Shown piece by piece: positions 21,833 through 63,794 of a stretch of DNA of 64,000 nt (positions within the stretch are counted from its first letter, which is position 1; the number at the start of each line of letters is the position of its first letter). Origin of the DNA: Longimicrobiales bacterium (GTDB lineage Bacteria > Gemmatimonadota > Gemmatimonadetes > Longimicrobiales > Gaopeijiaceae); the NCBI GenBank assembly GCA_965204735.1, contig OZ242008.1, positions 160,001-224,000 on the forward strand. Direction: 5' to 3'. The notes under the pieces are model-generated. The model was not told where the DNA came from, did no database searches, and was given only the letters and a program-made list of their open reading frames with translations. The position numbers and the translations under genes are program-made.

Positions 21833-22669
21833 TCAGCTGGAGCCAGCGTTCCCCCCGCCGCCACTCTCGCCTTCCGGGTCCGGTCCGGCGTCGTCCGTGG
21901 CGTGCGCGGCGGCGTCGGAGCACTCTCCCGAGTACGCCTCAGGGGTCTCCTCCCGCACGGTCTCCAGCTGGAGTCGGCGCGGGCGGGATCGCTCGTCGAG
22001 CTTCGCGCCCAGGGCGCTGACCTCGGCCTTCAGCGCCGCAAGTCCCGCCGAGAGTTCCCTGTGGTCCTCGCGAGCGTGCTTCTCCAACCGGTCGATTCGG
22101 CCCCCCAGCCGCTCCTCCAGCCTGTCGATGTGCTCCCGAAGCGCTTTGGTTTCGGCGCGGGTGTTCCCGGCCCCCTTGTCGATGTGCTCCCGAAGGGCTT
22201 GGGTGTCGGCGCGGGCGTCCCCAGCCAGTTTCTCGACGTGTTCCCGAAGGGCTTGGGTGTCGGCGCGGGCGTCCCCAGCCAGTTTCTCGACGTGTTCCCG
22301 AAGCGCCTGGATTTCGGCGCGGGCGTCCCCAGCCAATTCCTCGACGTGCTCCCGAAGTGCCTGGATTTCGGCGCGGGCGTCCCCAGCCAATTTCTCGACG
22401 TGTTCCCGAAGGGCTTGGGTGTCGGCGCGGGCATCCCCAGCCAATTCCTCGACGTGCTCCCGAAGCGCCTGGATTTCGGCGCGGGTGTTCCTGATTCCCT
22501 CGTCGATGTGCTCCCGAAGCGCTTTGGTTTCGGCGCGGATCTTCTCCATCTCGGCTCGAAGGCTCCTGGCTTCCCTGCGGGCGCTCGCCCTCAGGGCCAG
22601 AAACAGTCCCAGAGCCGAAATCACCAAGGAGGCGATCTGCCAGAAGTCGCTGCCGGTCGGTAGTTCCAT
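21833..22669 (-). CDS. Membrane-anchored coiled-coil protein with 18-aa tandem repeats
   Basis: N-terminal TM helix followed by 8 copies of RA(E/D)xxALREH(V/I)xxxxxxx. Confidence 0.75.
   Translation of the reverse strand: MELPTGSDFWQIASLVISALGLFLALRASARREARSLRAEMEKIRAETKALREHIDEGIRNTRAEIQALREHVEELAGDARADTQALREHVEKLAGDARAEIQALREHVEELAGDARAEIQALREHVEKLAGDARADTQALREHVEKLAGDARADTQALREHIDKGAGNTRAETKALREHIDRLEERLGGRIDRLEKHAREDHRELSAGLAALKAEVSALGAKLDERSRPRRLQLETVREETPEAYSGECSDAAAHATDDAGPDPEGESGGGGNAGSS
22106..22537 (-). repeat. 54-bp coding tandem repeat, 8 units
   Basis: Recurring cgacgtgttcccgaag...cggcgcgggcgtccccagcc with period 54. Confidence 0.9.
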
Positions 22670-22702
22670 CTTCGACGTGTCCTTCTCGGGACGGGCCGGT
22701 TC

Positions 22703-32185: not shown

Positions 32186-34248
32186 GGCGCGGACGTCCCC
32201 GCGACGCTCCGGGCCGACCCGACGGGCCGCTCCAGCAGCAAGCTTCCTGTTTCCATCACGGTGCACTCCCAGCTCTCGGGGACCCAGGTCGTTCCCGAAT
32301 ACTCTGCGACGATCGCCGGCCCTGCGAATCTAGCCCCGGCGCCCAGGGCGTCGCGGACGTGGCTTTCCGCCACAATGGACCCGTCGGCGGTCAGAACGGT
32401 TGCCGGCTCCGCCTTCGGGGCCGTTCCGGGACCGGGGCCCGGAAGCCGCACCTCCGCCGGCGGCGCCTGGGCCACCGCACGCAACGTAACGGCTTCCACC
32501 GGGCTCTCGCGCCGGGCGTAGCCGTAGCGCTCTTCGTGGGCGGAGTGGAACGCCTCCGCCCAGTCTTCGGCCGGCACGCGAAGCTCGAAGCTCTGGCCGG
32601 CGTAGCGGGCGTCCACCGAGCAGCGGACGGTCACGCCTTCGCCTTCGAAGCCCTCGTCGCGGAGGGCGCCGGCCGCTGCCGCCCGGAGCTCGGCGAAGGC
32701 GTCCTCGCACTCCTGGGGGTCGTCGCCCGCGCGCTGCAGGACCGTCCGGGACACCTCGCGGGTCACCGGGGCCACCAGCATTCCGAAGGCGGAAAGGAGA
32801 CCGGGCGACGGGGGCACCAGCGCGCGCTCGACGCCGATCCTCCCCGCCAGCTCCGCCACGTGAAGTCCGCCCGCCCCGCCGAACGCGACCAGGCAGAACT
32901 CCCGGGGATCGTAGCCCCGCTCCACCGAGATCACCCGCAGCGCGCGCTCCATGGCGCTGTCGGCCACCGCCAGCACTCCCTCGGCCGCCGCCTCCAGGCT
33001 GGCCCCCATCCCCTCGGCCACGCCCCGCAGCACGGGCTCCACCGCCTCCCGGTCCAGCGACGCGGTTCCGCCCAGGAACCCTCCGACGGGCAGCCGCCCG
33101 AGCCACACGTGGGCGTCGGTCACGGCCAGAGAACGACCGCCGCGCCCGTAGCACGCCGGCCCCGGCTCGGCCCCGGTGCTCTCGGGCCCCACCTTGAGGG
33201 CGCCTCCGGCGTCCAGCCGCGCGATGCTGCCGCCCCCTGCGCCCACCGTGTGGATGTCCAGCACCGGGACCGCCACCGGCTGCCCGTCGACGGCGAACTC
33301 CCGGGTGCGGAGCGGCCGTCCCGGGCACAGGGACACGTCGGTGGACGTGCCCCCCATGTCGAAGGCGACCACCTTGTCGAAGCCGGCGGCGCGTCCCCAG
33401 TGCAGCGCCCCCACCACGCCGCCGGCCGGACCGGACAGCACGGTGTGCACTGGTTCCCTCGTCGCCCGCCTCACCGGCACGGTTCCCCCGTTGGAGCCCA
33501 TGATCGCGACCCGCTCCGCGCCGGCCCGCTCCTCCAGCCGGGCCAAGTAGCCCGACACCATCGGCGCGACGAAGGCGTTCACCACCGTGGTCGAGGTTCG
33601 CTCGTACTCGCGAAACTCGGGAAGCAGCCGCGACGACACCGACACCGGCACGCCGCTCCCCTCCAGCGCCGTCGCCACCGCTTCCTCGTGGACCGGATTC
33701 GCGTACGAGTGCAGCAGGCACACCGCCACCGAGTCCCGCTCCCGCGCCCACTCCGCCAGCTTGGCCAGCTCCTCGGCGTCCACCGGCTCGAGCTCCGCGC
33801 CCTGGGGGTCCAGCCGCCCCGCCACGCCCAGCCGGTCCTCCCGTCCCGCCAGCGGCGGCTTGCGCCAGCCGACCAGCGCATAGAGCTGGGGACGGTTCTG
33901 ACGCCCGATCTCCAGCACGTCCTCGAAGCCCCGGTTGGTGACAAGTCCCACCCGCGCGCCCTTGCGCTCCAGAAGCGCGTTGGTCGCCACCGTGGTTCCG
34001 TGGAGAAGGACGAAGGGCCGGCGTTCGGGGCGCCCGCGTTCGGTCGAGCTTTCGCCCAGCCCCAGCGCCCGGAGCCCGTCGAGCACCGCCCGGCTGGGGT
34101 CCGCCGGCGTCGAGGGCACCTTGAGGCTCCGCAGCCCGCCGTCGGCGAGGATCAGCAGGTCGGTGAAGGTGCCGCCCGTGTCCACGGCCACCAGGAGGGG
34201 CTCGGCGCCCGCCTCCGTCGGCTTCGGCTTTCGCGTCGCTTCCGTCAA
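32182..34248 (-). CDS. Hydantoinase/oxoprolinase A family protein
   Basis: DTGGTFTD, HGTTVATNALLE, SGPAGG, DMGGTSTD, AFGGAGGLH. Confidence 0.9.
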   Translation of the reverse strand: MTEATRKPKPTEAGAEPLLVAVDTGGTFTDLLILADGGLRSLKVPSTPADPSRAVLDGLRALGLGESSTERGRPERRPFVLLHGTTVATNALLERKGARVGLVTNRGFEDVLEIGRQNRPQLYALVGWRKPPLAGREDRLGVAGRLDPQGAELEPVDAEELAKLAEWARERDSVAVCLLHSYANPVHEEAVATALEGSGVPVSVSSRLLPEFREYERTSTTVVNAFVAPMVSGYLARLEERAGAERVAIMGSNGGTVPVRRATREPVHTVLSGPAGGVVGALHWGRAAGFDKVVAFDMGGTSTDVSLCPGRPLRTREFAVDGQPVAVPVLDIHTVGAGGGSIARLDAGGALKVGPESTGAEPGPACYGRGGRSLAVTDAHVWLGRLPVGGFLGGTASLDREAVEPVLRGVAEGMGASLEAAAEGVLAVADSAMERALRVISVERGYDPREFCLVAFGGAGGLHVAELAGRIGVERALVPPSPGLLSAFGMLVAPVTREVSRTVLQRAGDDPQECEDAFAELRAAAAGALRDEGFEGEGVTVRCSVDARYAGQSFELRVPAEDWAEAFHSAHEERYGYARRESPVEAVTLRAVAQAPPAEVRLPGPGPGTAPKAEPATVLTADGSIVAESHVRDALGAGARFAGPAIVAEYSGTTWVPESWECTVMETGSLLLERPVGSARSVAGTSAP

Positions 34249-34255
34249 AGCTGTT
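34228..34255 (+). repeat. 28-bp direct repeat, left copy (island boundary)
   Basis: CTTTCGCGTCGCTTCCGTCAAAGCTGTT; 27/28 identical to 40541-40568. Confidence 0.85.
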
Positions 34256-34443
34256 CCGCCTCCGTGCTCCGTTTCCTGCGTGTCTCCGGCAATGCAAGCT
34301 AAAGGTGGACCTGGAGCGGCGCTTGGCCGACGCCCTGCCCCGACGACGCCTGCAAGCCCAGGTCGTCAGGTCGGCTCGGGGCCTCACGCGCTGCTGGGTG
34401 CGACAGCTTGCAGCTCCGCAATGCAGCCGATAATGTGCGCGAC

Positions 34444-35013
34444 ATGTCGGACCTGCCCGAAGTCGAAATCGACTTGGAGCGCCTGCGCGCCAGGGACCAG
34501 GAAGAAGTGACGAAGGTCGTAATGACGTACGGCCCCGTGCTCAAGTCGGTGTTTTGGGGAGTCGCGGTCGATCGGCATGACCTTGCCGACATCGTGAACG
34601 ACTTCTGGATACATATCGTGCCGAGACTGGACCGCTACTCCGGCAAGTCTCCGTTCGGGCCGTGGCTCGTGCGCTGCGCCAAGAACTTCCGCAACTCCAG
34701 GGCGCGCAAGAACAGCGCCTGGGCTGCTCGGACGGCAACCTTCAAGGAGCGCCGGGAGCTGGTGGTCGACGGTTCGGCCCTCGACGAGGAAGTCCAGCGG
34801 CAGTTGCTGAAGCAAGCCGTCTTCAAGGCAGTGGACGAGCTGCCGGGGCTGGAGGGCCAGGCGGTGACGCTGACGATGCTGGAGGGCCGGAGCAAGGCGG
34901 ACGCCGCGAAGATGCTGAACGTCAGCCAGGCGACGGTTGCGAACTTGGTGCGACGGGGGCTGTTCAAGCTGCAGGAGAACGAGCTTCTCCAAAGCTTTCA
35001 CGACGACATGTAG
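34444..35013 (+). CDS. ECF-type RNA polymerase sigma factor
   Basis: Region 2 (DLADIVNDFWIHI..YSGKSPFGPWL..CAKN) and region 4 (AVDELP..AAKMLNVSQATV..RGLFKL). Confidence 0.8.
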   Translation: MSDLPEVEIDLERLRARDQEEVTKVVMTYGPVLKSVFWGVAVDRHDLADIVNDFWIHIVPRLDRYSGKSPFGPWLVRCAKNFRNSRARKNSAWAARTATFKERRELVVDGSALDEEVQRQLLKQAVFKAVDELPGLEGQAVTLTMLEGRSKADAAKMLNVSQATVANLVRRGLFKLQENELLQSFHDDM

Positions 35014-35019
35014 GGACCC

Positions 35020-35754
35020 ATGCCGCCGCCGTTGCTCGCCCTGTCCGCCAGTTCGAGGTTGCGCCGGAAGCTCCGCATGGTCGCCGAGGCCGGCCCGGTG
35101 TCGCCGATCGTCGGACCCGTCGCCTTTGCTCGCAGCTGGAGCGGGCTGGCCGAGCTTGCCGCAGCTCACCCCGCGTCGCCGACGGTCGTCGATGCCGCGT
35201 TCCCCGAGGGTTCGCCCCCGCCGTCCACATTCGCGACGGCGCCGGGGATCGGTGGGAGCGACTCGCTTGGCGTCATTCGGCACGCCGTTCTTGGGGCCAT
35301 CGATCCCGAACGACCTCGTCGCTTGCTGGCCCGGATCCGCGAGCAAGGCGCCACCGAAGCCTGCCGGATCATGGACCACGTGCTGACCCGGTCCTTCGGT
35401 CCGTGCACGGTACCGGACTTGGCGGCGAGCCTGGGGCTGTCCCACTGGTCGCTGCTCCGCCGTTGCGCCGCCCTCGGCATTCCCACGCCCAAGAAGCTGA
35501 CCGACCTGGGACGCGTCTACACCGTCGAGCGACTGGCCGAGTGGAGCGAGCAACCGTCGGGCGTCGCGGCAACGGCCGTGGGGTACCCGGAGCCCGCCAA
35601 CTACCGACGAACGGCTCGCCGTGCCCTGGGCGAGCCGCCGACGGCGATCCGTCGCAGCGGCGGCGCCGCCTACGTGGGCCGCGTCATTCTGCGGAGGCTG
35701 GCGCCGCCGCCGACAGGTCCCGTCGGCCTCGCGCAACACGGCGCCAAAAACTGA
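35020..35754 (+). CDS. AraC-like HTH transcriptional regulator
   Basis: TVPDLAASLGLSHWSLLRRC..GIPTPKKL; ATAVGYPEPANYRR second HTH; homologous to the C-half of 62230-63633. Confidence 0.75.
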   Translation: MPPPLLALSASSRLRRKLRMVAEAGPVSPIVGPVAFARSWSGLAELAAAHPASPTVVDAAFPEGSPPPSTFATAPGIGGSDSLGVIRHAVLGAIDPERPRRLLARIREQGATEACRIMDHVLTRSFGPCTVPDLAASLGLSHWSLLRRCAALGIPTPKKLTDLGRVYTVERLAEWSEQPSGVAATAVGYPEPANYRRTARRALGEPPTAIRRSGGAAYVGRVILRRLAPPPTGPVGLAQHGAKN

Positions 35755-35794
35755 CCTGCATGTTCAGGGTTTCGAGAGCGTTCAACAGGTACGC
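35743..35794 (+). promoter_or_regulatory. Class A promoter-like motif GCCAAAAACTGACCTGCAT-N16-GCGTTCA-N4-GTACGC
   Basis: Same blocks at identical spacing at 42274-42325; lies directly upstream of a propeller operon. Confidence 0.7.
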
Positions 35795-42273: not shown

Positions 42274-42325
42274 GCCAAAAACTGACCTGCATTTTCGAGG
42301 GGCTGGGGGCGTTCAGAAAGTACGC
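42274..42325 (+). promoter_or_regulatory. Class A promoter-like motif, second copy
   Basis: GCCAAAAACTGACCTGCAT-N16-GCGTTCA-N4-GTACGC, followed by AAGGAGG RBS and ATG 42360. Confidence 0.7.
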
Positions 42326-52511: not shown

Positions 52512-55124
52512 ATGTCCAGCGTGGCCAAGGGACTTCTCGCCGGGGGATCGCTGGCCGCCGCGCTGCTGGCGACGCTGGCGGTTCAGGCGGCGGACAGGGG
52601 GCCGCGCCGTTCCGCCCCTCGCGCCGCCGTCCCGGCCGGCGCCCAGGCGGCCTCCGACTACGCGGGCGCCGAAGCCTGCCGAAGCTGCCACGCGGACCAC
52701 TTTGACGCCTGGGCGTCGTCCACCCACGGAACCGCCGGCGGCCCCCCGGGACCGGAGACGGTGATCGCCCCCTTCGGCGGTCCCCCGATCCGCTTTGCCG
52801 ACGCCGTGGTGTCGCCCCGGGTGGACGCCGACCGGTACCTCTTCGTCGTGGAGCGTCGGGGCCGTCCGCCGCTTCGCTACCAAGTCTCGGGCGTCGTCGG
52901 CCGGGGCCACATGGTGGGCGGAGGGACCCAAGGCTTCCTCTCCGCCTTTCCCGACGGCACCGAGCGCTTCCTTCCCTTCGACTGGTCCGCGGACGCCGAA
53001 GCGTGGTTCTGCAACACGGCCTTCGTGGGCGGCTTCTGGGTTCCGGGCGCGGACCGGGCGGCGCTCCGTGCCGACGCGGGATGGCTCCCGATCACCCCGG
53101 AGACGCGCCTGACCGAGTGCGGCGACTGGCCGCCCGTCCGGGTCATGGGCTCCACCCGCCGCTTCGCCAACTGCCAGAACTGCCACGGCAGCGGCGTCGA
53201 GGTCGCCTACCTTCCCGACGATCGCCGCTACGAGACCGCGATCGCGACCCTCCGGATCGACTGCGAATCGTGCCACGGTCCCGCCGCCGACCACGTGGAG
53301 CGCGCCCGCTCCGGCCTCCTCGCCTCTTCGCCCGACCTGGGCCTTCCCGCCCTGGACACCCTGGACGTCGACCAGTCCCTGGCGGTCTGCTTCCAATGCC
53401 ACGCCCTGAAGCGGTCGCTGGAGGACTCGCCGCCCCCGGACCCGTCGCCGAGCGGCCGGCCGCGCCGCCCCCCTGCGCGGTACAGCCTGGGGCTGCCCCT
53501 CGTGGGCGACTCGCCCTACCTCCCCGACGGCCGCATCCGCACCTTCGGCTACCAGCAGACCCACCGCAGCAGCGCCTGCTACCTCTCGGGCGCCATGACC
53601 TGCGTGGATTGCCACGACCCTCACTCCCAGTCCTACCGAGACCCCTTCGGCGCGCCCCTGGCCGGCCGCTGGGACGACGGCCAGTGCACCGCCTGCCACG
53701 CCAGCAAGGCCGCGGACCCGGAGTCCCACACCTTCCACCCGACCGCCTCCGACGGCGCCCGATGCGTCTCGTGCCACATGCCCTACGTCCAGCACCCGGA
53801 GCTGTCGGACGCGATCCCCTACGCCCGCTCCGACCACACGATTCCCGTCCCGCGCCCCGGCTTCGACGAGGCGGCGGGGCTGCCGTCGGCGTGCGCGGGC
53901 TGCCACCAGGACCGGACGCCGGCGGCCCTCGCCGAGCAGGTTGCGGAGTGGTGGGGGGAGCTGAGGCCGCACCGCCCGGAGGTCGCCGCGCTCTTCTCGG
54001 CGGCCTTTCCGGGCGCGGCAACTCCCGCCCGACCGCCCTCCGGCGCCCCGCCCCAGCCGACCCGCCCGGAAGACTTGGCCGCCCCCGCCCGTCCCCACGC
54101 CCCCGGCGCTTACGGCGCCCCCGCCGCCCCACCCGCCCCCTCGGCCCAGGCAACTTCCTCGGCCCAGGCAACTTCCTCGGCCCATGCCGCCCTCGCGGCT
54201 CCAGCCGCCTCCTCGGCCCAAGCCACCCTCGCGGCCCTGACCGAGGCCGCCGCCCTTGGCGAGCGCTACGCCCTTGCCAAGCTCATGGCGCTGAACGCCT
54301 GGGTCCTGGGCGCGGCCGCCTCGCCGGACCGCGTGGTCGTCCCGGCGGCCACCGCAGCGCTGACCGTCCTGGCCGGCGATCCCGACGTCGACGTCCGCGC
54401 CGTCGCCGCGGCCGCGCTTCACGCCACCCACGACGACGACCACCCGGCCCTTCACGCCCTCCTCGTCGCGCCGACGGCCCCTCCGTCCTCGACCCCCTCT
54501 CTGCCGCCCTCCACCGCTCAGTCCCGCGCCGCAGGCGTCCGCGTCCGCTGGGCCGCCGCTCTCTCCCAGTGGGCGGCGGCGCTCTCCCGCTCTCACGGCC
54601 CGGCGGCGGCCCTCCCCTTCCTGCAACGAGCGCGGCAACTCCGCCCGACCGATCCGGAGGCGCTGATCGGCCTCGCCGCAGGGCTGGCGGCGGTCGGCAA
54701 CCACGCCCAGGCCGTGGGAGTCTACCAGGACGCCCTTGGCCTCGATCCCGACCACCCGGTCGCCCTGGTCAACCTCGGGCTGGGCCTCGAGGCCCTGGGC
54801 CGCGACGCCGAAGCCGAGGCCGCCTACGACCGGGCCGCGACGGCAAGACCGAGCGAGGCTCTGGCGCACTTCAACCTGGGCAACGCCCGCTTCCGCCGCG
54901 GCGACCTGCTGGGCGCGGGCGTCGCGTACCGCGCCGCCGTCGAATCCGATCCGGGCTTGGCCCGCGCCCACTTCTACCTCGCCGTCGTCCTCGTCAACGG
55001 CGGTGGCGATCTGGAGGAAGCCCTTTCGGCCCTGTACAGCGCCGCCGAGTTCGCCCCCGACGACGAAAAGGTCCGTCGCGTTCTCCAGCAGGTGGAAGCG
55101 GCGGTGAACAGGCCGGGCGGCTAA
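52512..55124 (+). CDS. Multiheme c-type cytochrome (8 CxxCH) with C-terminal TPR repeats
   Basis: CRSCH, CQNCH, CESCH, CFQCH, CVDCH, CTACH, CVSCH, CAGCH; TPR ALVNLG/AHFNLG; signal peptide. Confidence 0.9.
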   Translation: MSSVAKGLLAGGSLAAALLATLAVQAADRGPRRSAPRAAVPAGAQAASDYAGAEACRSCHADHFDAWASSTHGTAGGPPGPETVIAPFGGPPIRFADAVVSPRVDADRYLFVVERRGRPPLRYQVSGVVGRGHMVGGGTQGFLSAFPDGTERFLPFDWSADAEAWFCNTAFVGGFWVPGADRAALRADAGWLPITPETRLTECGDWPPVRVMGSTRRFANCQNCHGSGVEVAYLPDDRRYETAIATLRIDCESCHGPAADHVERARSGLLASSPDLGLPALDTLDVDQSLAVCFQCHALKRSLEDSPPPDPSPSGRPRRPPARYSLGLPLVGDSPYLPDGRIRTFGYQQTHRSSACYLSGAMTCVDCHDPHSQSYRDPFGAPLAGRWDDGQCTACHASKAADPESHTFHPTASDGARCVSCHMPYVQHPELSDAIPYARSDHTIPVPRPGFDEAAGLPSACAGCHQDRTPAALAEQVAEWWGELRPHRPEVAALFSAAFPGAATPARPPSGAPPQPTRPEDLAAPARPHAPGAYGAPAAPPAPSAQATSSAQATSSAHAALAAPAASSAQATLAALTEAAALGERYALAKLMALNAWVLGAAASPDRVVVPAATAALTVLAGDPDVDVRAVAAAALHATHDDDHPALHALLVAPTAPPSSTPSLPPSTAQSRAAGVRVRWAAALSQWAAALSRSHGPAAALPFLQRARQLRPTDPEALIGLAAGLAAVGNHAQAVGVYQDALGLDPDHPVALVNLGLGLEALGRDAEAEAAYDRAATARPSEALAHFNLGNARFRRGDLLGAGVAYRAAVESDPGLARAHFYLAVVLVNGGGDLEEALSALYSAAEFAPDDEKVRRVLQQVEAAVNRPGG

Positions 55125-55361
55125 GGAGCGGCGCGCAGGCCTCTGCGGGCGGTGTGCCAATTTTGATATACCACGGGAGCGGCTTGCGGCGTCTCCATAT
55201 ATGTCGGCAGGAACCGACAGGCTCACGGGGGAGGACTCGCACCTTCCCGGAATTCAGAATCTCTACCAGGAGACAGCAGCATGACTTACCTCCGCAAGCT
55301 CGCCCGGCTCTTCCGTCGCGCCGTCGCGACGGTCGCCTTCGGCCAGGGCACTCCCCAGTCG
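54115..55361 (+). repeat. Left anchor repeat, copy 1 (TPR 3' end + class B promoter + MTYLRK leader)
   Basis: Near-identical to about 57355-58467. Confidence 0.9.
55154..55198 (+). promoter_or_regulatory. Class B promoter-like motif GTGCCAATTYTGATATACCACG-N10-GCGGCGTCTCCAT
   Basis: Also at 58255-58299 and, independently, at 63687-63731 with the same spacing. Confidence 0.7.
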
Positions 55362-55817
55362 GTCACGCTGAAGAGCAGGGTGGCCACGACATTCCCGACT
55401 CCGACAAACCGCTCCAACTCCCCCAGGTCACGGGTCAGAACCTTCCGGCACGGTCGTGGGCAAGACCCCGGATCACTCTGGGACAAGACCGGGCAAAGCC
55501 GCTGCTACATGGCCAACACCGGAGTCAGCGTTCTCGTAGCTGGGCTGGCATTCCTGCAACTTGGTTGTGACGCGACATCGCCGTCGCACGATTCACAACC
55601 GATAGTTGTCGAAGCCCGACCGGCTGTAACCGAGCGCGGAACACTACAGGTTCGGCTGACCAGCAGCAGAAACGCCGTTGCCGGTGTTCCAGTCGTTCTT
55701 CGCGTCTACGACCTGGCAGGAAACGTCGTGGACGAACGGAAGTTTGCTTCTCTGCAGGACGTCGCGGCAGGCGCCGTATTCACGGACGACAGCACTGAGA
55801 CGGAGGGCGAACGATGA
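55281..55817 (+). CDS. Hypothetical lipoprotein-like protein with MTYLRK leader
   Basis: GGAG RBS; internal lipobox-like VLVAGLAFLQLGC; ATGA overlap with the next gene; alternative start at 55509. Confidence 0.55.
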   Translation: MTYLRKLARLFRRAVATVAFGQGTPQSVTLKSRVATTFPTPTNRSNSPRSRVRTFRHGRGQDPGSLWDKTGQSRCYMANTGVSVLVAGLAFLQLGCDATSPSHDSQPIVVEARPAVTERGTLQVRLTSSRNAVAGVPVVLRVYDLAGNVVDERKFASLQDVAAGAVFTDDSTETEGER

Positions 55818-56407
55818 AGCCATGGGCCAGGGCCGTATCCGCCGTTCTGTTGATCACTACGGCAACCCTCCCCGCATCGTTGGTCGCTGTAGAATCCGCT
55901 TCCCTCAATCGTCCTCTGGACGTAACTGTCGAGCTGTCGGCTCTGGAATGCCGCGCAGACGGCAACGTTGTCTTCAGCGCAACAGGCTCCTCTGGAGGCT
56001 TCGCGGCCGAAGCGGTTCGTGACGCCATCCCTTCCTGCGAGGTGGACTGGACGGCGGCCGTAACGGGTTGTACGACGTGCTTCACATCCGTCATGTTCCT
56101 CGTGGGCGGCGCATGGGCTGTTCGAGCTGCACACTTGGGCATGAGGCTCGCCATTGCCATGACCAGAGGCCAAGCCCGGGCAGCGATGTTCGCTGCCGGG
56201 TTCACCTTCGCTGGCGTCTTGTCCCAGCTCTTGCCTGGATGTCGCGGGTGCTTTTCTGCAACGTGCGTGCGTGAGTTGGCTCGAGGCGTGATGGAGGCGA
56301 TTGAGCAGTTGTTCACGTCTCCCCTCTGGTCGTGCGCGAACGCGGACGTCAATGCCGAGTTGGAGTGCCTGATTGGGATCAACGACGATGGCGAGATCGA
56401 ATACTAG
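55814..56407 (+). CDS. Secreted Cys-rich (9 Cys) hydrophobic hairpin protein, bacteriocin-like candidate
   Basis: Signal peptide; GCTTCF...hydrophobic core...GCRGCF. Confidence 0.65.
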   Translation: MKPWARAVSAVLLITTATLPASLVAVESASLNRPLDVTVELSALECRADGNVVFSATGSSGGFAAEAVRDAIPSCEVDWTAAVTGCTTCFTSVMFLVGGAWAVRAAHLGMRLAIAMTRGQARAAMFAAGFTFAGVLSQLLPGCRGCFSATCVRELARGVMEAIEQLFTSPLWSCANADVNAELECLIGINDDGEIEY

Positions 56408-56627
56408 CACTGGCACCGTCGAGAAGGTCGCTAGGTATCGGCGCCGAGCTCGATGCGCGGTGATCGTTGCGGTAGCGATGGCGACGGTGGGACCGGTCGT
56501 GGACCCGTCCCTGGAAGCGATAGTGTCGGCGGTGACGGCGTGGGCCGCCGGCACTATCATCTGGCTGATCGCGGACATCTCCAAGGCGGTCGTTGACTGC
56601 GCCGACGGGCAGGACTGCGAGGACTAG
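56388..56627 (+). CDS. Small 2-TM protein (immunity-like candidate)
   Basis: Two hydrophobic segments; overlaps the end of the Cys-rich gene. Confidence 0.5.
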   Translation: MARSNTSTGTVEKVARYRRRARCAVIVAVAMATVGPVVDPSLEAIVSAVTAWAAGTIIWLIADISKAVVDCADGQDCED

Positions 56628-56710
56628 GTTGGCAACCGCCAAATGGGAAGTGGACGGGACCACCGTCACGGAAAAATGGCTCGAATGCTTTGAACCGGAG
56701 TGGTAGAGAA

Positions 56711-57271
56711 ATGATGAAGCTACTTGAGCGTCAAGTCCCGCTCTGGCTGATCTTGGTCTGCTTCGTCACCATGGCGACGACACTCGTGGTGGCGGCTTGG
56801 TTGTCTTCACGACCGGCCGACGAACCGACCGTCGTGAACGTCGTGGACGTCGTCTGGACGGACGGACGGCTGGAGATGCCCAACCCGGAAGCGTTCACGG
56901 AAGGGCACGACGGCCCTGTCGCTTTTCGCATCATTGAGGACGGAGAGGTCGTCATGGAGTTCGCAGGGGCGAACTTGGCGGAAGCACGCCAGAAGCTCGA
57001 GCAAGCATCCATGGAATACCTCGAGGAGATGGCCGGCCGACCGGATGCGTCTCAGGCGCTGCGGGCTCTTGTAGAGCTGAGAGAAAGCCTCCCGTCCGAT
57101 TCTTCCATCAGGCTTATGACGGCCGACCAACTGACTCGTTTGCTGGAGACGATGGAACCGCTGTTGGCGGCTGGTTATGCCGACATGCCGGCGGAGGAGC
57201 AGGCCAAGGTGCTCTCGGGCGTGAAGGAAGCCGTGAACGCCGTGAAGTCGGAGGTGGCGAAGGACTCCTGA
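56711..57271 (+). CDS. Membrane-anchored hypothetical protein (DEPTVV family, paralog of 58387-59061)
   Basis: SRPADEPTVV..DVVW..DGPV..ESLP...I.LMT..TRLLE..EPLLAA. Confidence 0.75.
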   Translation: MMKLLERQVPLWLILVCFVTMATTLVVAAWLSSRPADEPTVVNVVDVVWTDGRLEMPNPEAFTEGHDGPVAFRIIEDGEVVMEFAGANLAEARQKLEQASMEYLEEMAGRPDASQALRALVELRESLPSDSSIRLMTADQLTRLLETMEPLLAAGYADMPAEEQAKVLSGVKEAVNAVKSEVAKDS

Positions 57272-57345
57272 CTCCGGGACCGACGGACCGGCCTGGCGAG
57301 CAGGCGGTCACGCTCCCGAGGGCTGGTCCAGTTCGTTATCCACGC
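57223..57345 (+). repeat. Right anchor repeat, copy 1 (about 120 bp)
   Basis: gaaggaagccgtgaacgccgtgaagtcggagg..ggtccagttcgtt..ccacgc recurs at 60967-61086. Confidence 0.9.
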
Positions 57346-57354
57346 ACGCGCGCA

Positions 57355-58225
57355 GCGCCCCTGCCGCCCCACCCGCCCTCGCGGTCCAGGCAATGCCTTC
57401 GGCCCAGGGCGGCCCTCTCGGCCCAAAGCCACCCTCGCCGCCCCGACCGAGGCCGCCGCCCTTGGCGAGCGCCACGCCCTTGCCAAGCTCATGGCGCCTG
57501 AACGCCTGGGTCCTGGGCACGGCCGCCTCGCCGGACCGGGCGGTCGTCCCGGCGGCCACCGCAGTGCCCTGACCGTCCTGACCGGCGATCCCGACATCGA
57601 CGTCCGCGCGGTCGCCGCGGCTGCGCTTCACGCCACCCACGACGACGACCACCCGGCCCTTCGCCCCCTCCTAGCCGCGCCAGCGGCCCCTCCGTCCTCG
57701 GCCCCCTCTCCGCTGCCCTCCACCGCAACGAGCGCGGCAACTCCGCCCGACCGATCCGGAGGTGCTGATCGGCCTCGCCGCAGGGCTGGCGGCGGCCGGC
57801 AACCATGCCCAGGCCGTGGGAGTCTACAGGACGCCCTTGGCCTCGATCCCGACCACCCGGTCGCCCTGGTCAACCTCGGGCTGGGCCTCGAGGCCCTGGG
57901 CCGCGACGCCGAAGCCGAGGCCGCCTACGATCGGGCCGCGACGGCAAGACCGAGCGAGGCTCTGGCGCACTTCAACCTGGGCAACGCCCGCTTCCGCCGC
58001 GGCGACCTGCTGGGCGCGGGCGTCGCGTACCGGGCCGCCGTCGAATCCGATCCGGGCTTGGCCCGCGCCCACTTCTACCTCGCCGTCGTCCTCGTCAACG
58101 GCGGCGGCGATCTGGAGGAAGCCCTTTCGGCCCTCTACAGCGCCGCCGAGTTCGCCCCCGACGACGAAGAGGTCCGTCGCGTTCTCCAGCAGGTGGAAGC
58201 GGCGGTGAACAGGCCGGGCGGCTAA
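57355..58225 (+). pseudogene. Degraded duplicate of the 3' part of the multiheme-TPR gene
   Basis: Near-identical to 54115-55124 with deletions and frameshifts (e.g. gtctacagg vs gtctaccagg). Confidence 0.9.
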
Positions 58226-58254
58226 GGAGCGGCGCGCAGGCCTCTGCGGGCGGT

Positions 58255-58299
58255 GTGCCAATTTTGATATACCACGGGAGCGGCTTGCGGCGTCTCCAT
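58255..58299 (+). promoter_or_regulatory. Class B promoter-like motif, copy 2
   Basis: Identical to 55154-55198 (part of the duplication). Confidence 0.65.
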
Positions 58300-58386
58300 A
58301 TATGTCGGCAGGAACCGACAGGCTCGCGTCGCGAGGAGGCTCGCACCCTTCCCGGAATTCAGAATCCTCTACCAGGAGACAGCAGC

Positions 58387-59061
58387 ATGACTTACCTTCG
58401 CAAGCTCGCCCGGCTCTTCCGTCGCGCCGTCGCGACGGTCGCCTTCGGCCAGGGCGCTCCCCAGTCGCAAGTCCGGCCGAACCAAGCCCCGGTCCGCCGC
58501 GGCTTCTCCCACCGCGGCCTCGCCCTGGTGCCGCTGCTCAGGTTCAGGCATGGACTGACGGTGGGCGTCATAGCGATCGCGATGTCCGCCAGCGGCTGCA
58601 CGGACGCGTTTTCGCGGCCGGTCGATGAGCCGACCGTCGTTGACGTCGTCTGGAGGAACGGCCGTGTGGAACTCGCCGATCCAGAAGTCGCGCTGGAGCG
58701 GCCCGACGGCCCTGTCAGGGTTCGCTTCATCAAGGACGACGAGGTAGTCAAGGAATACGCCGCCGGAAGCTTGGCGCAGGCACGGGCGGAAATGGAGCGT
58801 GACGTCCGGAACAAGTGGAAGGATATGGCCAGGCGCCCGGGCGCATTGCCCGAAACCAGGGCGTGGGCAGAGCTGATGGAGAGCCTCCCTACCGAGTCTG
58901 CCATCATGCTCATGACGGACGAAGAACGGACGCGCCTGTTGGAGGCGGTGGAGCCGTTGCTGGCGGCTAGTCGCCGCGACATGAGGGCGGAGGAGCGTGC
59001 CAGGATGCTGTCCGACGTTAGAGAAACCGTGAACGCCTTGATGTCGGAGGTGGCAAAATGA
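58387..59061 (+). CDS. Lipoprotein-like DEPTVV family protein with MTYLRK leader
   Basis: Same first 23 aa as 55281; lipobox-like ASGC; body paralogous to 56711-57271. Confidence 0.7.
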   Translation: MTYLRKLARLFRRAVATVAFGQGAPQSQVRPNQAPVRRGFSHRGLALVPLLRFRHGLTVGVIAIAMSASGCTDAFSRPVDEPTVVDVVWRNGRVELADPEVALERPDGPVRVRFIKDDEVVKEYAAGSLAQARAEMERDVRNKWKDMARRPGALPETRAWAELMESLPTESAIMLMTDEERTRLLEAVEPLLAASRRDMRAEERARMLSDVRETVNALMSEVAK

Positions 59062-59534
59062 TGATGGCACGTGGCTTGGTCTTCATCCTTCTCCTCCTCG
59101 GCGCGGCCTTCGCTGCCGAGCCAGCGGAAGCCGCCGTAGCCCCGGACGCCGAAGTCACTTCGGTCAACACCTGTCCGATCCCCCAACGCAACTGCTCGAG
59201 GTCGGAGGCATGGGAAATGGGCATCAACTGCGGGGCATGCTTCGTCGAAGTGTTCCTGTGCCCGTTCGCGATCGGGGCCGTCTACATAGCTCCGGACCCT
59301 GCGTCAAAAGCGGCTGCGATCCTTGCCGCGCTCATCACGTGTCTGGGTCCATTCCAGTCGTGCACGCAGTGTGTCAGGGCGGCCCACCGCTGCGGCGACG
59401 AAGCCAAGGAGCGGGCGGCGCGAGAGCACCTGCGGGCGACCATGGAACGCATTCGTCGTCTGGAGGAGATGCTGATCCCAGGCAATGGTAACGAGTGCGA
59501 AGAGAGCGCTCCTGATTGCCATACTCCCCACTGA
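59058..59534 (+). CDS. Secreted Cys-rich (11 Cys) hairpin protein, bacteriocin-like candidate
   Basis: Signal peptide (..GAAFA/AEA); CxxC-x6-C...C-x6-CxxC; ATGA overlap; GGAGG RBS. Confidence 0.7.
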   Translation: MMMARGLVFILLLLGAAFAAEPAEAAVAPDAEVTSVNTCPIPQRNCSRSEAWEMGINCGACFVEVFLCPFAIGAVYIAPDPASKAAAILAALITCLGPFQSCTQCVRAAHRCGDEAKERAAREHLRATMERIRRLEEMLIPGNGNECEESAPDCHTPH

Positions 59535-59548
59535 GCGGAGAGGCTAAC

Positions 59549-59794
59549 GTGATAAACTTTCTGGTCACTTTTGGCCGATGGTGGCTTGGGTTTGGATGCG
59601 GCTGGTGTTTCGCCATGACCTACGGCCCCTGGACGGTCTTGGTCGCTGTTCCAATGACGGTGTTGGTAGTGTGCACCGCGTTGTGGTTCTGCGGCTTTCG
59701 CGGGGCCGTGTTTGCCCTCTTCGGGGGCGATACGCCGACGCTTGTTCGTCCGGTTCCGGCCTGGCTCCTGCGAATCGCCCCATGGCTCCGATAG
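59549..59794 (+). CDS. Small Trp-rich 2-TM protein (immunity-like candidate)
   Basis: GGAGAGG RBS, GTG start, hydrophobic 81 aa. Confidence 0.6.
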   Translation: MINFLVTFGRWWLGFGCGWCFAMTYGPWTVLVAVPMTVLVVCTALWFCGFRGAVFALFGGDTPTLVRPVPAWLLRIAPWLR

Positions 59795-59804
59795 GTCCCG
59801 GCCC

Positions 59805-60980
59805 GTGAGTCGCGACTGTCCAGGTCCGTGCGTCGGTTTCGTGCCGATCTGGGCAGTCGCGACCATCGCAGCAACCCTGCTCGCTTCTTCCGCAGAGGCC
59901 CAATGGCGGCTGGGTCCGCCGGACTTGGTGATCGGCGAGGAAGCAGGGACGCTGTTCGACGACATAGCGGATGTGTTCGTCCGCGACGCTCGCATCTACG
60001 TGACGGACCGAGGCGCCCGCACGATTCGAGCGTTCGCTCGGGCGACCGGGCGCTTGGTCGCAACGGCGGGGCGTGAAGGCGAGGGCCCTGGCGAGTTTCG
60101 GTTTGTGGGCTGGGTAGACGACTGCGGTACCGACGCAATCGTCGCGTCGGACCACGGCTTGGACCGTGTGTCCGTCTTTACCCTGGATCTGGACCATGTT
60201 CGGACGTTCGCTCTGGGCGCCACGCGACTCGCTGCGATCCAGTGCGTTGGTTCGCGCGGATTCGTAGGAATCAAACGAAACCCCGATCCCCTGCTCCACC
60301 TTCGGGGGGAAATCCCAATGGAGCCGTACGTCGGTACGGTCGATCTCGTCCTGTTGGGGCCAGACGGTTCCCTCCAGCGGACGATCGGAAGATTCCCTGC
60401 TGAAGACCGATTCCGTGTGGCCATGCCCGACGGCCGGGGCTACAGCATACTCCCCCTCGTGTGGGGTCTGCGGCCGGTCTTCGAGTCCTTCCAGCAGGGG
60501 TTTGTCTTCGGAACAGGAGACTCGTGGTCGCTGGCCCGCTACGACGCGGAGGGCAACGTCTTGGACACGCTGGCGCTGGACCAGAGCCGTCTCGCCGTTG
60601 CGCGTGCCCATGTCGACGAGCATGCCCGGCGAGCGGTCGCGGCCAGCCGCAACCCCGAACGCGATCGACGGTTCTACGCGGACTACCCGTTCCCTTCCCA
60701 CTTCCCCGCATACACCGATGTCGTCGCGTCGAAGAGCGGCTTCACCTGGGTAGAACAGTTCTCCGCACCTTACCCGGAAGCTGACCCTCACTGGAAGGTC
60801 TTCGCACCCGACCGCGCCTTGGCGGCTACTGCGGACTTGCCGAGAGGCTTCGAACTCATGTGGGTTGGGGACACGCAAGTCGCGGGAGTCGTGAGAGACG
60901 AACTGGGCGTCCAGAGCATGGAGCTGCGCCCCATCGTGCGCGTGGCGGAAAACGACCTATCGGCTCGAAGGAAGCCGTGA
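59805..60980 (+). CDS. 6-bladed beta-propeller protein, secreted
   Basis: Signal ..SAEA; AGREGEGPGEF; PL.WG..PV and RDELGVQ motifs resemble 300-1469; start uncertain. Confidence 0.8.
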   Translation: MSRDCPGPCVGFVPIWAVATIAATLLASSAEAQWRLGPPDLVIGEEAGTLFDDIADVFVRDARIYVTDRGARTIRAFARATGRLVATAGREGEGPGEFRFVGWVDDCGTDAIVASDHGLDRVSVFTLDLDHVRTFALGATRLAAIQCVGSRGFVGIKRNPDPLLHLRGEIPMEPYVGTVDLVLLGPDGSLQRTIGRFPAEDRFRVAMPDGRGYSILPLVWGLRPVFESFQQGFVFGTGDSWSLARYDAEGNVLDTLALDQSRLAVARAHVDEHARRAVAASRNPERDRRFYADYPFPSHFPAYTDVVASKSGFTWVEQFSAPYPEADPHWKVFAPDRALAATADLPRGFELMWVGDTQVAGVVRDELGVQSMELRPIVRVAENDLSARRKP

Positions 60981-61086
60981 ACGCCGTGAAGTCGGAGGCG
61001 GCGAAGGACTCCTGACTCCGGGCCGAGGGACCGGCCGGCGAGCAGGCGGTCGCGCTTCCGAGGGCTGGTCCAGTTCGTTTCCACGC
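60967..61086 (+). repeat. Right anchor repeat, copy 2 (relic of DEPTVV gene end EAVNAVKSEAAKDS*)
   Basis: Near-identical to 57223-57345. Confidence 0.9.
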
Positions 61087-61111
61087 GCCGAAGCAGTAGA
61101 TTGCAGGTGCC

Positions 61112-61588
61112 ATGACCCGAATCCGCGTCGCCGTCGCCCTGGTACCGCTCCTGTGCGGGGCGTGCCACGCCTACGCGCCGGCGTCTCCTTCCGCCGTCGG
61201 ACCCGGCGACCAGGTCCGCGCCCTCCTCACCGCCGAGCAGCTCGACCGCTTCCGGGGGGTGCTGCCGACCGACGCCCGGAGCGTGGAAGGCACAGTGCTC
61301 GAAGCGGTCCCGGGCGAGCTGCTGCTGGAAGTCCCCCTTCTCGTCCAAGCCGAAGGGCTGCGCGTCGAGTCGCTCCGGCAGCGGCTTCGCATCCCCGAGA
61401 CGGGATTGGCCGACTTGGAGTTCCGCACCCTCGCCCGGGGCCGAACCTGGGCCCTGGCCGGCGCTGCTGCCGCGCTGGTGGGGTACGTGACCTGGGACCA
61501 ATGGTTCTCCGACGCCAAGCGCGACCCCCAAGTGCTGCCCGGCCCGGTCAACGAGTTCTGGCGGGTCGTGGTCCCGGTTCCGCCGTGA
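61112..61588 (+). CDS. Hypothetical lipoprotein
   Basis: LCGAC lipobox-like motif; C-terminal TM helix. Confidence 0.65.
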   Translation: MTRIRVAVALVPLLCGACHAYAPASPSAVGPGDQVRALLTAEQLDRFRGVLPTDARSVEGTVLEAVPGELLLEVPLLVQAEGLRVESLRQRLRIPETGLADLEFRTLARGRTWALAGAAAALVGYVTWDQWFSDAKRDPQVLPGPVNEFWRVVVPVPP

Positions 61589-62229: not shown

Positions 62230-63633
62230 ATGGACGCTGCTTCGCCAATCGACTCGACCGCCGACACGCCGAAGGCAACCGAGAGACCACCCACGCTCGC
62301 CGAGCTGGAACGCTTCCGAGCCGCCGACCCCGCCCTCCTGCGGGAGTGGCTCGCGGAGGTGGAGCCACGCCTGATCGGGACGATAGCGGGCTGGGCCGCC
62401 GATCCCGCCCACGCGGACGACCTGCTGCAGGAGGTCCAGGTCCGCATCTACCGGCGGCGGGCAGGCTTTTCCGGCTCCGGCACGTTCGCGCGGTGGGCGG
62501 ACAAGGTCTGCCTGAACATCTGTCGCACCGATCAGCGCATGAGGGCGCGCAATCGGGCGGTGCCGATCGACCAGTGCCCGGAGATCGCGGACGACGCGCC
62601 CGGTCCCGCGGAGCAGTTCCAGAGCCGCCTGCGGGCCGCGACGGTTCGCGAGGCCGTCGAACGGCTGGACGAGAGGGAGCGGGAAGCGGTCGTCGCCTGT
62701 CACCTCGAGGAGCTGCCGACGGCCGAGGTCGCCCGAACGATGAAGACGACCGAACAGGTCGTCAGAACCCTGGTCCACCGGGGCTTCCGGAAGCTCAGGA
62801 GCATGGACGACGTGACGGAGTTCATGATCGGCTCCAACAGCCGCGCGCCACAAGCGTCCTCCGTTCTCGCGCTCCAATCGGACTGCCGGCTTCGGACTCG
62901 GTTGCGGACGGGCGTGCGGGCCGGGGCCGTCCACGGCTTGGTGGAAGGCGTCCACTTCGCCTCCGGCTGGAGCGACCTGCGGGAGTTGGCGCTCCGCTTC
63001 AGTGGTTCGCCCGCGTTCGTGGACCCCTCGCATCCCTCGGCGGAGGAACGACGAGACCCAGCGGCGTGGTTGCAGCAGGCGGTGCCGGAGTGTCCTCTGA
63101 TCCGCTACGGGAAGGGCGGCGCCAAGTCGCCGGCCACGGACGCCGAGTTCGTCGCGCGTCTGACGCCCGGCGACAACGACAGCCTCGTGGCGATCGGCAC
63201 TGCGGTGCTTCTGGCCGCCAACTACGACTTGGTGCGCAACCTGCTGGCGAACCTCGGGAAGGTCGCTCCCGTCGAAGCTCGAGAGCTTCTGGGGAGCGTC
63301 GTTCGCCGCACGGTGTTCCCGTGCACGGTCGGGGCACTGGCGACGAGCTGGGGAACCAGCGTGGCGATGGTAGGGCGGCGGTGCCGGGCGTGGGGACTGC
63401 CGAAGCCCAAGAGACTCGTCTTGCTGGCACGCCTCTTTCACGTGCAGAGGCTGGCCGAATGGAGCGGTCGGCCGCCGGGCGCGATCGCCCTCGCCCTGGG
63501 CTACTCGGCCTACTCCAACTACGCGCGGTGCGTGCGAAGGGAGATGGAGTGCACGTCGTCGGAGGTCGCCCAACGCGGCGGAGCGGCCTACGTGGCCGCG
63601 AGACTGATCGACGAGGTTGGGGACTCCCGATGA
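62230..63633 (+). CDS. ECF sigma factor - AraC-like HTH fusion protein
   Basis: ADDLLQEV..FSGSGTFARW..CLN (region 2), EVARTM..VRTLVHRGFRKL (region 4), then TVGALA..GLPKPKRL..ALALGYSAYSNY. Confidence 0.8.
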   Translation: MDAASPIDSTADTPKATERPPTLAELERFRAADPALLREWLAEVEPRLIGTIAGWAADPAHADDLLQEVQVRIYRRRAGFSGSGTFARWADKVCLNICRTDQRMRARNRAVPIDQCPEIADDAPGPAEQFQSRLRAATVREAVERLDEREREAVVACHLEELPTAEVARTMKTTEQVVRTLVHRGFRKLRSMDDVTEFMIGSNSRAPQASSVLALQSDCRLRTRLRTGVRAGAVHGLVEGVHFASGWSDLRELALRFSGSPAFVDPSHPSAEERRDPAAWLQQAVPECPLIRYGKGGAKSPATDAEFVARLTPGDNDSLVAIGTAVLLAANYDLVRNLLANLGKVAPVEARELLGSVVRRTVFPCTVGALATSWGTSVAMVGRRCRAWGLPKPKRLVLLARLFHVQRLAEWSGRPPGAIALALGYSAYSNYARCVRREMECTSSEVAQRGGAAYVAARLIDEVGDSR

Positions 63634-63686
63634 GGCGGTCCAGCGCGAGCCGGTTCGCGCCCCTCGAGATCGAGGAATTCGCAGAG

Positions 63687-63731
63687 GTGCCAATTCTGAT
63701 ATACCACGCAGCGGGCGGGCGGCGTCTCCAT
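63687..63731 (+). promoter_or_regulatory. Class B promoter-like motif, independent copy
   Basis: GTGCCAATTCTGATATACCACG-N10-GCGGCGTCTCCAT; the flanks are unrelated to 55154. Confidence 0.7.
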
Positions 63732-63794
63732 CTACAAGACCCAATGCCCCCGTTTGGAAGTACGCGTTCCCCGCAACAAGGATCCCTGACTGAC

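Follow-up and report, generated by a model that had tools for sequence, protein, structure and literature searches.

How do two gene cassettes with nearly the same ends and quite different middles come to stand in tandem, and what might they encode? The question is raised by a locus of a sponge-associated Longimicrobiales bacterium (assembly GCA_965204735.1) whose genome is one contig of 4.14 Mb with 69% GC and a completeness of 98%. Unless stated otherwise, positions are those of the window, the whole 64,000-nucleotide stretch analysed (160001-224000 of contig OZ242008.1), and features lie on its + strand. Here two units meeting at 57345-57355 each carry genes for a lipoprotein, a small cysteine-bearing (Cys) protein and a small membrane protein. 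The reading argued below, on which our judgement is evenly balanced, is that these genes form a module comprising a putative bacteriocin-like toxin and its immunity gene, of which two alleles were stacked at one insertion.

The insertion and its repeated ends

The site without its cassettes is found in two genomes of the same genus, G001 and G003. In both, the orthologue of the left-flanking host gene (52512..55124), a multiheme c-type cytochrome with a C-terminal TPR region according to Pfam, directly adjoins the orthologue (63-64% identical) of the right-flanking host gene (61112..61588). In a further genome, G002, the TPR homologue is more distant and has a different context. The empty site in G001 and G003 identifies about 6 kb (~55125-61096) as an insertion and, within it, 57355-58225 as duplicated host DNA. 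The GC content of the cassettes is 60-66% versus 73-75% in the flanking genes. A preliminary description of this DNA had missed the empty site, as well as the family-wide occurrence of the module and the orphan copies of its membrane gene that are described below.

The two-unit structure with shared ends that had been proposed there was confirmed for both repeats. The left repeat (54115-55361 versus 57355-58467) and the right repeat (57223-57345 versus 60967-61086; 94.3% identity over 123 bp) are absent elsewhere in the genome except for a 49-bp promoter piece. The near-identity earlier ascribed to the left repeat holds only over its last 744 bp (97.4%), which comprise the end of the TPR gene, the promoter and an 81-bp leader. 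In its 5' zone (54115-54517 versus 57355-57726) identity is 85-91%, with several indels and frameshifts followed by a 106-bp deletion. Substitutions number 23/314 in the 5' zone versus 8/501 in the 3' zone (p=5e-5), and the proportions of synonymous (pS) and nonsynonymous (pN) differences look neutral in the former (pS 0.086, pN 0.068) and allele-like in the latter (pS 0.037, pN 0.008). About 1 kb of the left repeat is duplicated, decaying host gene and contains no cassette DNA; this frameshifted 3' piece of the TPR gene (57355..58225) starts within an 18-bp repeat tract (54097-54240).

The leader (MTYLRKLARLFRRAVAT...; 55281..55361, 79/81 identical to 58387-58467) forms the 5' end of the lipoprotein genes and marks the left breakpoint. 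Its type also occurs on proteins P0003-P0006. Two of these, P0003 and P0004, are single genes with leader, lipobox, DEPTVV domain and the end EAVNAVKS.VAKDS, and P0004 matches the unit-1 open reading frame (ORF) across its first 42 residues. Because leader and DEPTVV domain are joined in P0003 and P0004, the leader is the 5' end shared by a family of lipoproteins.

The right end of the insertion (57272..57345) can fold as a GC-rich hairpin, and its final portion is similar (in a local alignment only) to the native host-gene end that was displaced. The right anchor of the preliminary description stands as a repeat, but its unit-2 copy (60962..61086) is the remnant of a terminal DEPTVV gene that lost 540 bp and now lies directly after a propeller gene. 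Eight base pairs of the remnant equal 56678-56685 and are joined at GAA to the equivalent of 57226; the chance expectation for such an 8-mer match is 0.005 per 120 bp. One contig of metagenomic run X16 (depth 2.3) joins 60957 to 56680 without the 540-bp loss and continues into a further MIH-type leader. The remnant and this contig thus suggest that both units formerly consisted of promoter, leader, cassette, terminal DEPTVV gene and right end.

Assemblers can be misled by near-identical anchors in tandem, and a chimeric assembly of two strain haplotypes could produce such a stack. Strains were compared by aligning to the window the contigs of 8 of the 20 listed runs carrying the locus, the named ones being sponge and marine metagenomes. 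Contigs bridge the junction in five of the eight (X3, X6, X7, X12 and X9), from four studies; X3 and X12, which hardly differ from the window, may be its source, and X6, X7 and X9 differ by single-nucleotide polymorphisms. Run X15 has a variant join, and for X10 and X16 no bridging piece is listed, which is not taken as absence, and neither is the uncovered stretch 56991-57297 in X16. A single contig extends from the unit-2 leader to 62200 in X6, X7 and X15, although no compared piece covers the whole stretch. Contig depth, which is not copy number, is similar over both cassettes and the flanks (46-52 versus 36-50 in X6; 30-35 versus 31-36 in X15), and the second TPR copy has frameshifts of its own. 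The chimeric reading, which the preliminary description had singled out for checking, is largely refuted by these observations and now hardly credible.

At 57333-57359 run X15 is longer by 33 letters and carries a short repeat; the unit junction is therefore still changing. Within the 18-bp repeat tract of the TPR gene, one X6 contig is short by one unit and a piece of X9 has 18 gaps.

How, then, was the stack made? Homologous recombination between the anchors, earlier offered as the source of the diversity, cannot make it alone because one end needed an illegitimate join. The simplest account of the stack is a single addition with its anchor in the TPR gene. A second allele would have been added through homology in the host TPR gene together with an illegitimate join in the 18-bp repeat tract, which would duplicate 1 kb of the host gene; unit 2 would then have lost 540 bp of its terminal gene, and cassettes may exchange through the shared leader and terminal gene. 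Duplication followed by cassette replacement fits the data equally well. ComEC is present in the genome. As had been noted earlier, the window holds no integrase: neither integrase nor transposase families were found among the 44 window ORFs scanned, and tyrosine integrases (PF00589) occur in the genome only at 1.726 and 2.419 Mb. An Rfam scan gave no match. Outside the window, about 9.5 kb downstream of the locus, lies an ORF that by similarity looks transposase-like (L035; genome C1:230546-232276).

The cassettes and their relatives

The cassettes measure ~1.3 kb in unit 1 and ~2.5 kb in unit 2. In unit 1 the lipoprotein (55281..55817, alternative start 55509) belongs to the DEPTVV family, though distantly and in shortened form (24.3 bits; 0/500 shuffles reach this score). 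It is followed by a Cys protein of 197 aa (55814..56407) with a signal-like N-terminus and two hydrophobic segments enclosed by CxxC motifs, for which protein P0008 is a homologue at 67% and whose sequence type differs from that of unit 2. Overlapping the end of the Cys gene is the candidate immunity gene (56388..56627), which encodes a two-helix membrane protein of 79 aa; the terminal DEPTVV gene (56711..57271) has a hydrophobic anchor in place of the lipobox and ends in EAVNAVKSEVAKDS before its stop codon.

In unit 2 the lipoprotein (58387..59061) consists of leader, lipobox (SGC) and DEPTVV domain, with a predicted fold of a small beta-sheet and a three-helix bundle; compared with the unit-1 terminal gene its dN/dS is 0.38. 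The Cys protein (59058..59534; 158 aa) has a signal-like N-terminus, C-x2-C-x6-C, a hydrophobic hairpin, C-x6-C-x2-C-x6-C and a third helix, and belongs to a Cys family found throughout the bacterial family (55.2 bits, 0/500 shuffles). Its small membrane protein (59549..59794; 81 aa) shows one strong hydrophobic peak and possibly two helices, and DNA homologous to its gene stands ahead of a DEPTVV-like gene in P0014. The cassette closes with an exported six-bladed beta-propeller-like protein of uncertain start (59805..60980; PF17170, E 8e-4, below cut-off), for which the genome contains 21 further tblastn matches. The preliminary gene lists were correct for both units, but the interiors are not differently ordered as had been thought: since the unit-1 lipoprotein is a DEPTVV-family member, both cassettes read lipoprotein, Cys protein, membrane protein.

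For the Cys domain of unit 2, the AlphaFold model (AF2, pLDDT 87; helices 13-42, 46-77 and 80-104) is a confident hairpin of two 30-residue hydrophobic helices with a third helix. The mirrored 3-7 / 7-3 spacing of the cysteines on the antiparallel helices suggests three putative staples across the hairpin. With the Cys domain as query, fold searches returned only generic three-helix bundles, the best of them a designed one (Z 13.1, rmsd 1.6, 92 aligned). For the lipoprotein, too, the matches were unspecific (best Z 7.9, rmsd 1.6, 60 aligned). A predicted complex of the two scored 0.28 against a mark of 0.32 and is not used either way. Beyond the weak propeller match, the cargo proteins gave nothing at cut-off in Pfam, NCBIfam, PADLOC, PHROGs and PDB sequences, and an Atlas search gave no usable match. 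The CxxC-hydrophobic-CxxC pattern has 8 matches among 31,155 genome ORFs, of which by eye only the two window Cys genes look exported. Judged by sequence comparison, the lipoprotein, Cys and small membrane proteins are three unnamed families.

The module is not confined to this genome. A lipoprotein profile, whose query included G062 and G256, matched 20 of 313 genomes of the family at E<=0.01. In all seven non-self genomes at E<1e-6 the adjacent downstream gene encodes a protein composed of a membrane segment, a signal-like one and a Cys domain. In G176, which only the Cys profile detected, the lipoprotein gene lies upstream. The module thereby occurs in eight other family genomes, with the Cys gene intact in G316, G203, G237 and G176 and broken (truncated, frameshifted or split by an insertion sequence, IS) in G062, G256, G056 and G314. 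These copies lie at unrelated loci, several beside IS-like ORFs, and span three genera. At least three Cys types (unit-2 type, unit-1 type and G275 type) fill the same slot, and the Cys gene has a dN/dS of 0.29 between G203 and G237. The membrane hairpin is fused to the Cys protein in the relatives, whereas in the window it is a separate downstream gene. From the 24 lipoprotein-profile matches, inspection left out 3 self matches, G062 and G256 (seen separately) and 7 at E>1e-3; no adjacent Cys gene was present at G252, G323, G325 and the second G062 match among the 10 inspected.

A narrower lipoprotein profile matched 2 of 300 genomes of the order, both in the same family, and 1.84 billion representatives yielded 6 matches at E<=1e-10. 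In a phylum sample of 351 genomes there were 3 weak matches outside the family (E 0.002-0.007), and the only one inspected, G658, is unrelated. Matches of the Cys profile in G287 and G142 were rejected as chance. Behind an IS-like sequence at L102 (G083:C2:2512877-2513206) stands a further frameshifted membrane-signal-Cys gene, at which the lipoprotein was not seen. No loci were found in collections of metagenome contigs, viral contigs or plasmids, and no RNA run is listed as carrying the locus. A literature search met no title or opening of an abstract describing the module; supplementary genome-mining tables could list its genes.

Within the strains compared, the gene content of both units is identical in seven of eight runs (near-full cover), with nucleotide divergence up to ~4%, and the X15 terminal gene is ~96% identical to that of the window. 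In the window both units have open Cys and membrane ORFs, and no Cys-gene indel is present among the rows listed for the compared runs. The earlier view of a polymorphic locus stands in part: two alleles are in tandem and other arrangements exist (P0003, P0004, P0014 and X16), but current hypervariability is not supported.

Orphan membrane genes and the function of the module

The unit-1 membrane gene has three orphan copies, each of which comes with the last 13-20 codons of a Cys gene. One is in the same genome (L034, C1:1732866-1733127; 93.5%) and two are in G003 (L083:1501-1650, and L085 at G003:C1:3558514-3558793); five further weak matches of the membrane-gene profile were left out of this count. 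Each orphan is co-directional with, and begins a few bases after the TAG stop of, an unrelated gene, these upstream genes presumably being, by similarity, aconitase, hutU and FMN reductase. The orphan sites are empty in the other genomes checked. Genome G003 has the Cys tips of its two orphans and no Cys gene; these tips match the P0008 allele, and the tip in the source genome is nearer to the unit-1 allele. Given the 20-bp overlap between the Cys and membrane genes, the ribosome site would lie in the tip. Between the unit-1 membrane gene and the orphan in its own genome, dN/dS is 0.34. In arrangement only, the placement behind host stop codons may be likened to that of orphan immunity genes, and a feature of polymorphic toxins is likewise present in arrangement, namely a small gene tightly behind the Cys gene that also occurs as an orphan with a 3' remnant. 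After the L085 orphan there is a run of CTAG-containing short repeats; CTAG is ~nine-fold depleted in the source genome.

These arrangements are accommodated by the toxin reading as follows. An ECF-type (extracytoplasmic function) promoter would drive the operon; the Cys protein would be exported by its signal peptide, fold into a disulfide-stapled hydrophobic helical hairpin and insert into the membrane of a competitor. The overlapping membrane protein would protect the producer, and the always-adjacent lipoprotein may help to release or hold the toxin. If true, this would be the first concrete candidate for strain-level warfare among uncultured Gemmatimonadota living as sponge symbionts. Immunity could then be gained by capturing a single gene behind a housekeeping gene, which needs neither array nor integrase. 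The proteins are small, so that toxicity and rescue are directly testable. If the toxin reading is false, the locus is still a well-supported case of two alleles stacked without an integrase.

Several observations weigh against the toxin reading. Among toxin and bacteriocin families none reached its cut-off, and the sole hint, from one of seven members, is a weak match to the Ssp4 profile NF053808 (E 0.004; 16.4 bits versus a cut-off of 300). Homology of the unit-1 Cys protein to the unit-2 Cys family is not significant (98/500 shuffles), and neither is that of the window membrane proteins to the hairpins fused to the relatives' Cys proteins (170 and 277 of 500 shuffles). Many of the relatives' loci adjoin IS elements, which is compatible with passive carriage. 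Selection on the orphans is not established, since dN/dS against the intact G003 orphan is 0.84-0.91 and the second orphan of G003 is truncated. Gene content is nearly fixed in the sampled strains, the only rearranged contig being that of X16 at depth 2.3, and swapping is therefore historical rather than shown as ongoing. Finally, the bias towards synonymous changes in the duplicated TPR piece (p=0.23) does not tell an added allele from duplication with conversion.

The main rival to the toxin reading, which we regard as somewhat unlikely, is a non-toxic exported envelope repertoire for host contact, ligand binding or signalling, in which the lipoprotein would present the disulfide-stabilised three-helix protein, the membrane protein would be its anchor and diversifying selection would act at the surface. 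It would suit the model of the Cys protein, which looks like a generic soluble bundle of three helices, the third of them amphipathic, as well as the anchor-like fusion of a membrane segment to the relatives' Cys proteins and the occurrence of the promoter-like motif before other exported and lipoprotein genes. However, it leaves unexplained the three captures of a membrane gene with a Cys tip, two of them in a genome without a Cys gene.

Improbable in our estimation is an old tandem duplication of the island's gene set, after which one cassette was replaced and neutral decay set in; the anchors would be relics and the orphans accidental debris. The neutral decay of the 5' part of the TPR copy agrees with such a history, as do the content fixed in seven of eight runs, the shortened unit-1 lipoprotein, the deleted unit-2 terminal gene and the dN/dS near 1 against the G003 orphan. 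It is at odds with the open Cys and membrane ORFs of both units in the window, with a module present in three genera under purifying dN/dS, and with orphans that are co-directional with the upstream gene in 3/3 cases.

Is such a locus already known under another name? Rhs, CDI and Maf polymorphic toxin loci have shared 5' sequence flanking variable cassettes, which permits swapping. The present locus likewise has shared recombinable flanks (81-bp leader and terminal gene) around two different cassettes. Unlike those loci, it lacks a long conserved delivery domain with a variable toxin tip attached, the Cys proteins being stand-alone ORFs of 158-197 aa, and its shared 5' sequence lies in the lipoprotein gene rather than in the toxin candidate.

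A closer parallel is offered by the effector-immunity arrays of the Vibrio cholerae type VI secretion system (T6SS). In that report, modules are added behind a conserved upstream anchor by a proposed homology-facilitated illegitimate recombination, older parts are shifted downstream, and orphan immunity-like genes carry toxin 3' remnants, with no integrase (PMC5361080). The proposed additive stacking behind an upstream anchor with a downstream shift of older parts, orphans tipped with the toxin candidate's 3' end and the lack of an integrase are common to both. The present locus differs in stacking whole three-gene modules with their promoter, in duplicating 1 kb of a host gene and in having orphans scattered behind housekeeping genes instead of arrayed. 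The T6SS sheath VipB (PF05943), the one marker searched, was not found in the 98% complete genome.

Two smaller systems were also compared. Halocin C8/ProC8 (10.64898/2026.07.27.741052) shares a small Cys-rich product, exported in the halocin and predicted to be so here, and the N-terminal fused domain of the relatives recalls HalI-HalC8; however, the fused part here is a short membrane hairpin and not of HalI size, the window gene is separate and downstream, and there is a conserved lipoprotein partner. TIGR04449 had 0 matches in the source genome (the control worked), and the 7 Cys proteins compared with it gave no match at E<=1 either. Ssp4/Sip4 (PMC12669606) shares a helical protein with hydrophobic helices, an adjacent small membrane protein and a short insertion in a housekeeping cluster. 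The Cys proteins differ from it in having about half the length, a signal peptide and at least 8 cysteines, there is no T6SS, and the immunity candidate has 1-2 helices versus 4. Compared in this way, the locus fails as a member of the fused-toxin type, halocin C8, Ssp4 and integrons, and what it appears to resemble is polymorphic toxin-immunity loci.

A bolder proposal, put forward tentatively, is that the modules may encode bacteriocins of a new class, disulfide-stapled hairpins that are assisted by a lipoprotein and specific to the Longimicrobiales of sponges. Their operons would be stacked and swapped at one locus, and non-producers would graft the bare immunity gene, with a ribosome site from the toxin's last codons, behind housekeeping genes.

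The promoter-like motif and neighbouring features

Both cassettes are preceded by a promoter-like motif, TTTTGATATACCA-N16/17-CGTCT, at 55154..55201 in unit 1 and 58255..58302 in unit 2. A third copy (63687-63734) follows a gene fusing an ECF sigma factor to a helix-turn-helix (HTH) domain, the two together occupying 62230..63734, and the remaining sites are genome C1:4088623(-) and 4089912(+). All five sites have the same spacing, and there are 4 exact copies versus 0 in 20 permuted motifs. The three sites outside the cassettes lie before a gene for an exported protein that follows the sigma-HTH gene, before one for a lipoprotein and before a short ORF of unclear nature. The motif resembles an ECF-type promoter, and the sigma-HTH fusion at 62230 is a candidate reader of the cassette promoters. 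A sigma-54 reading of the motif was rejected, its spacing not being preserved at 63687. The exact pattern was not found in 5 relatives, and a scan for sigma-70 promoters and terminators remained at chance level.

The window contains a second pair of ECF sigma and HTH-like genes (34206-35794), and a different repeated upstream motif of 52 bp (42274-42325) stands before propeller-like genes. Eight 54-bp tandem repeats occur at 22063-22602, within a coiled-coil gene (21836-22702).

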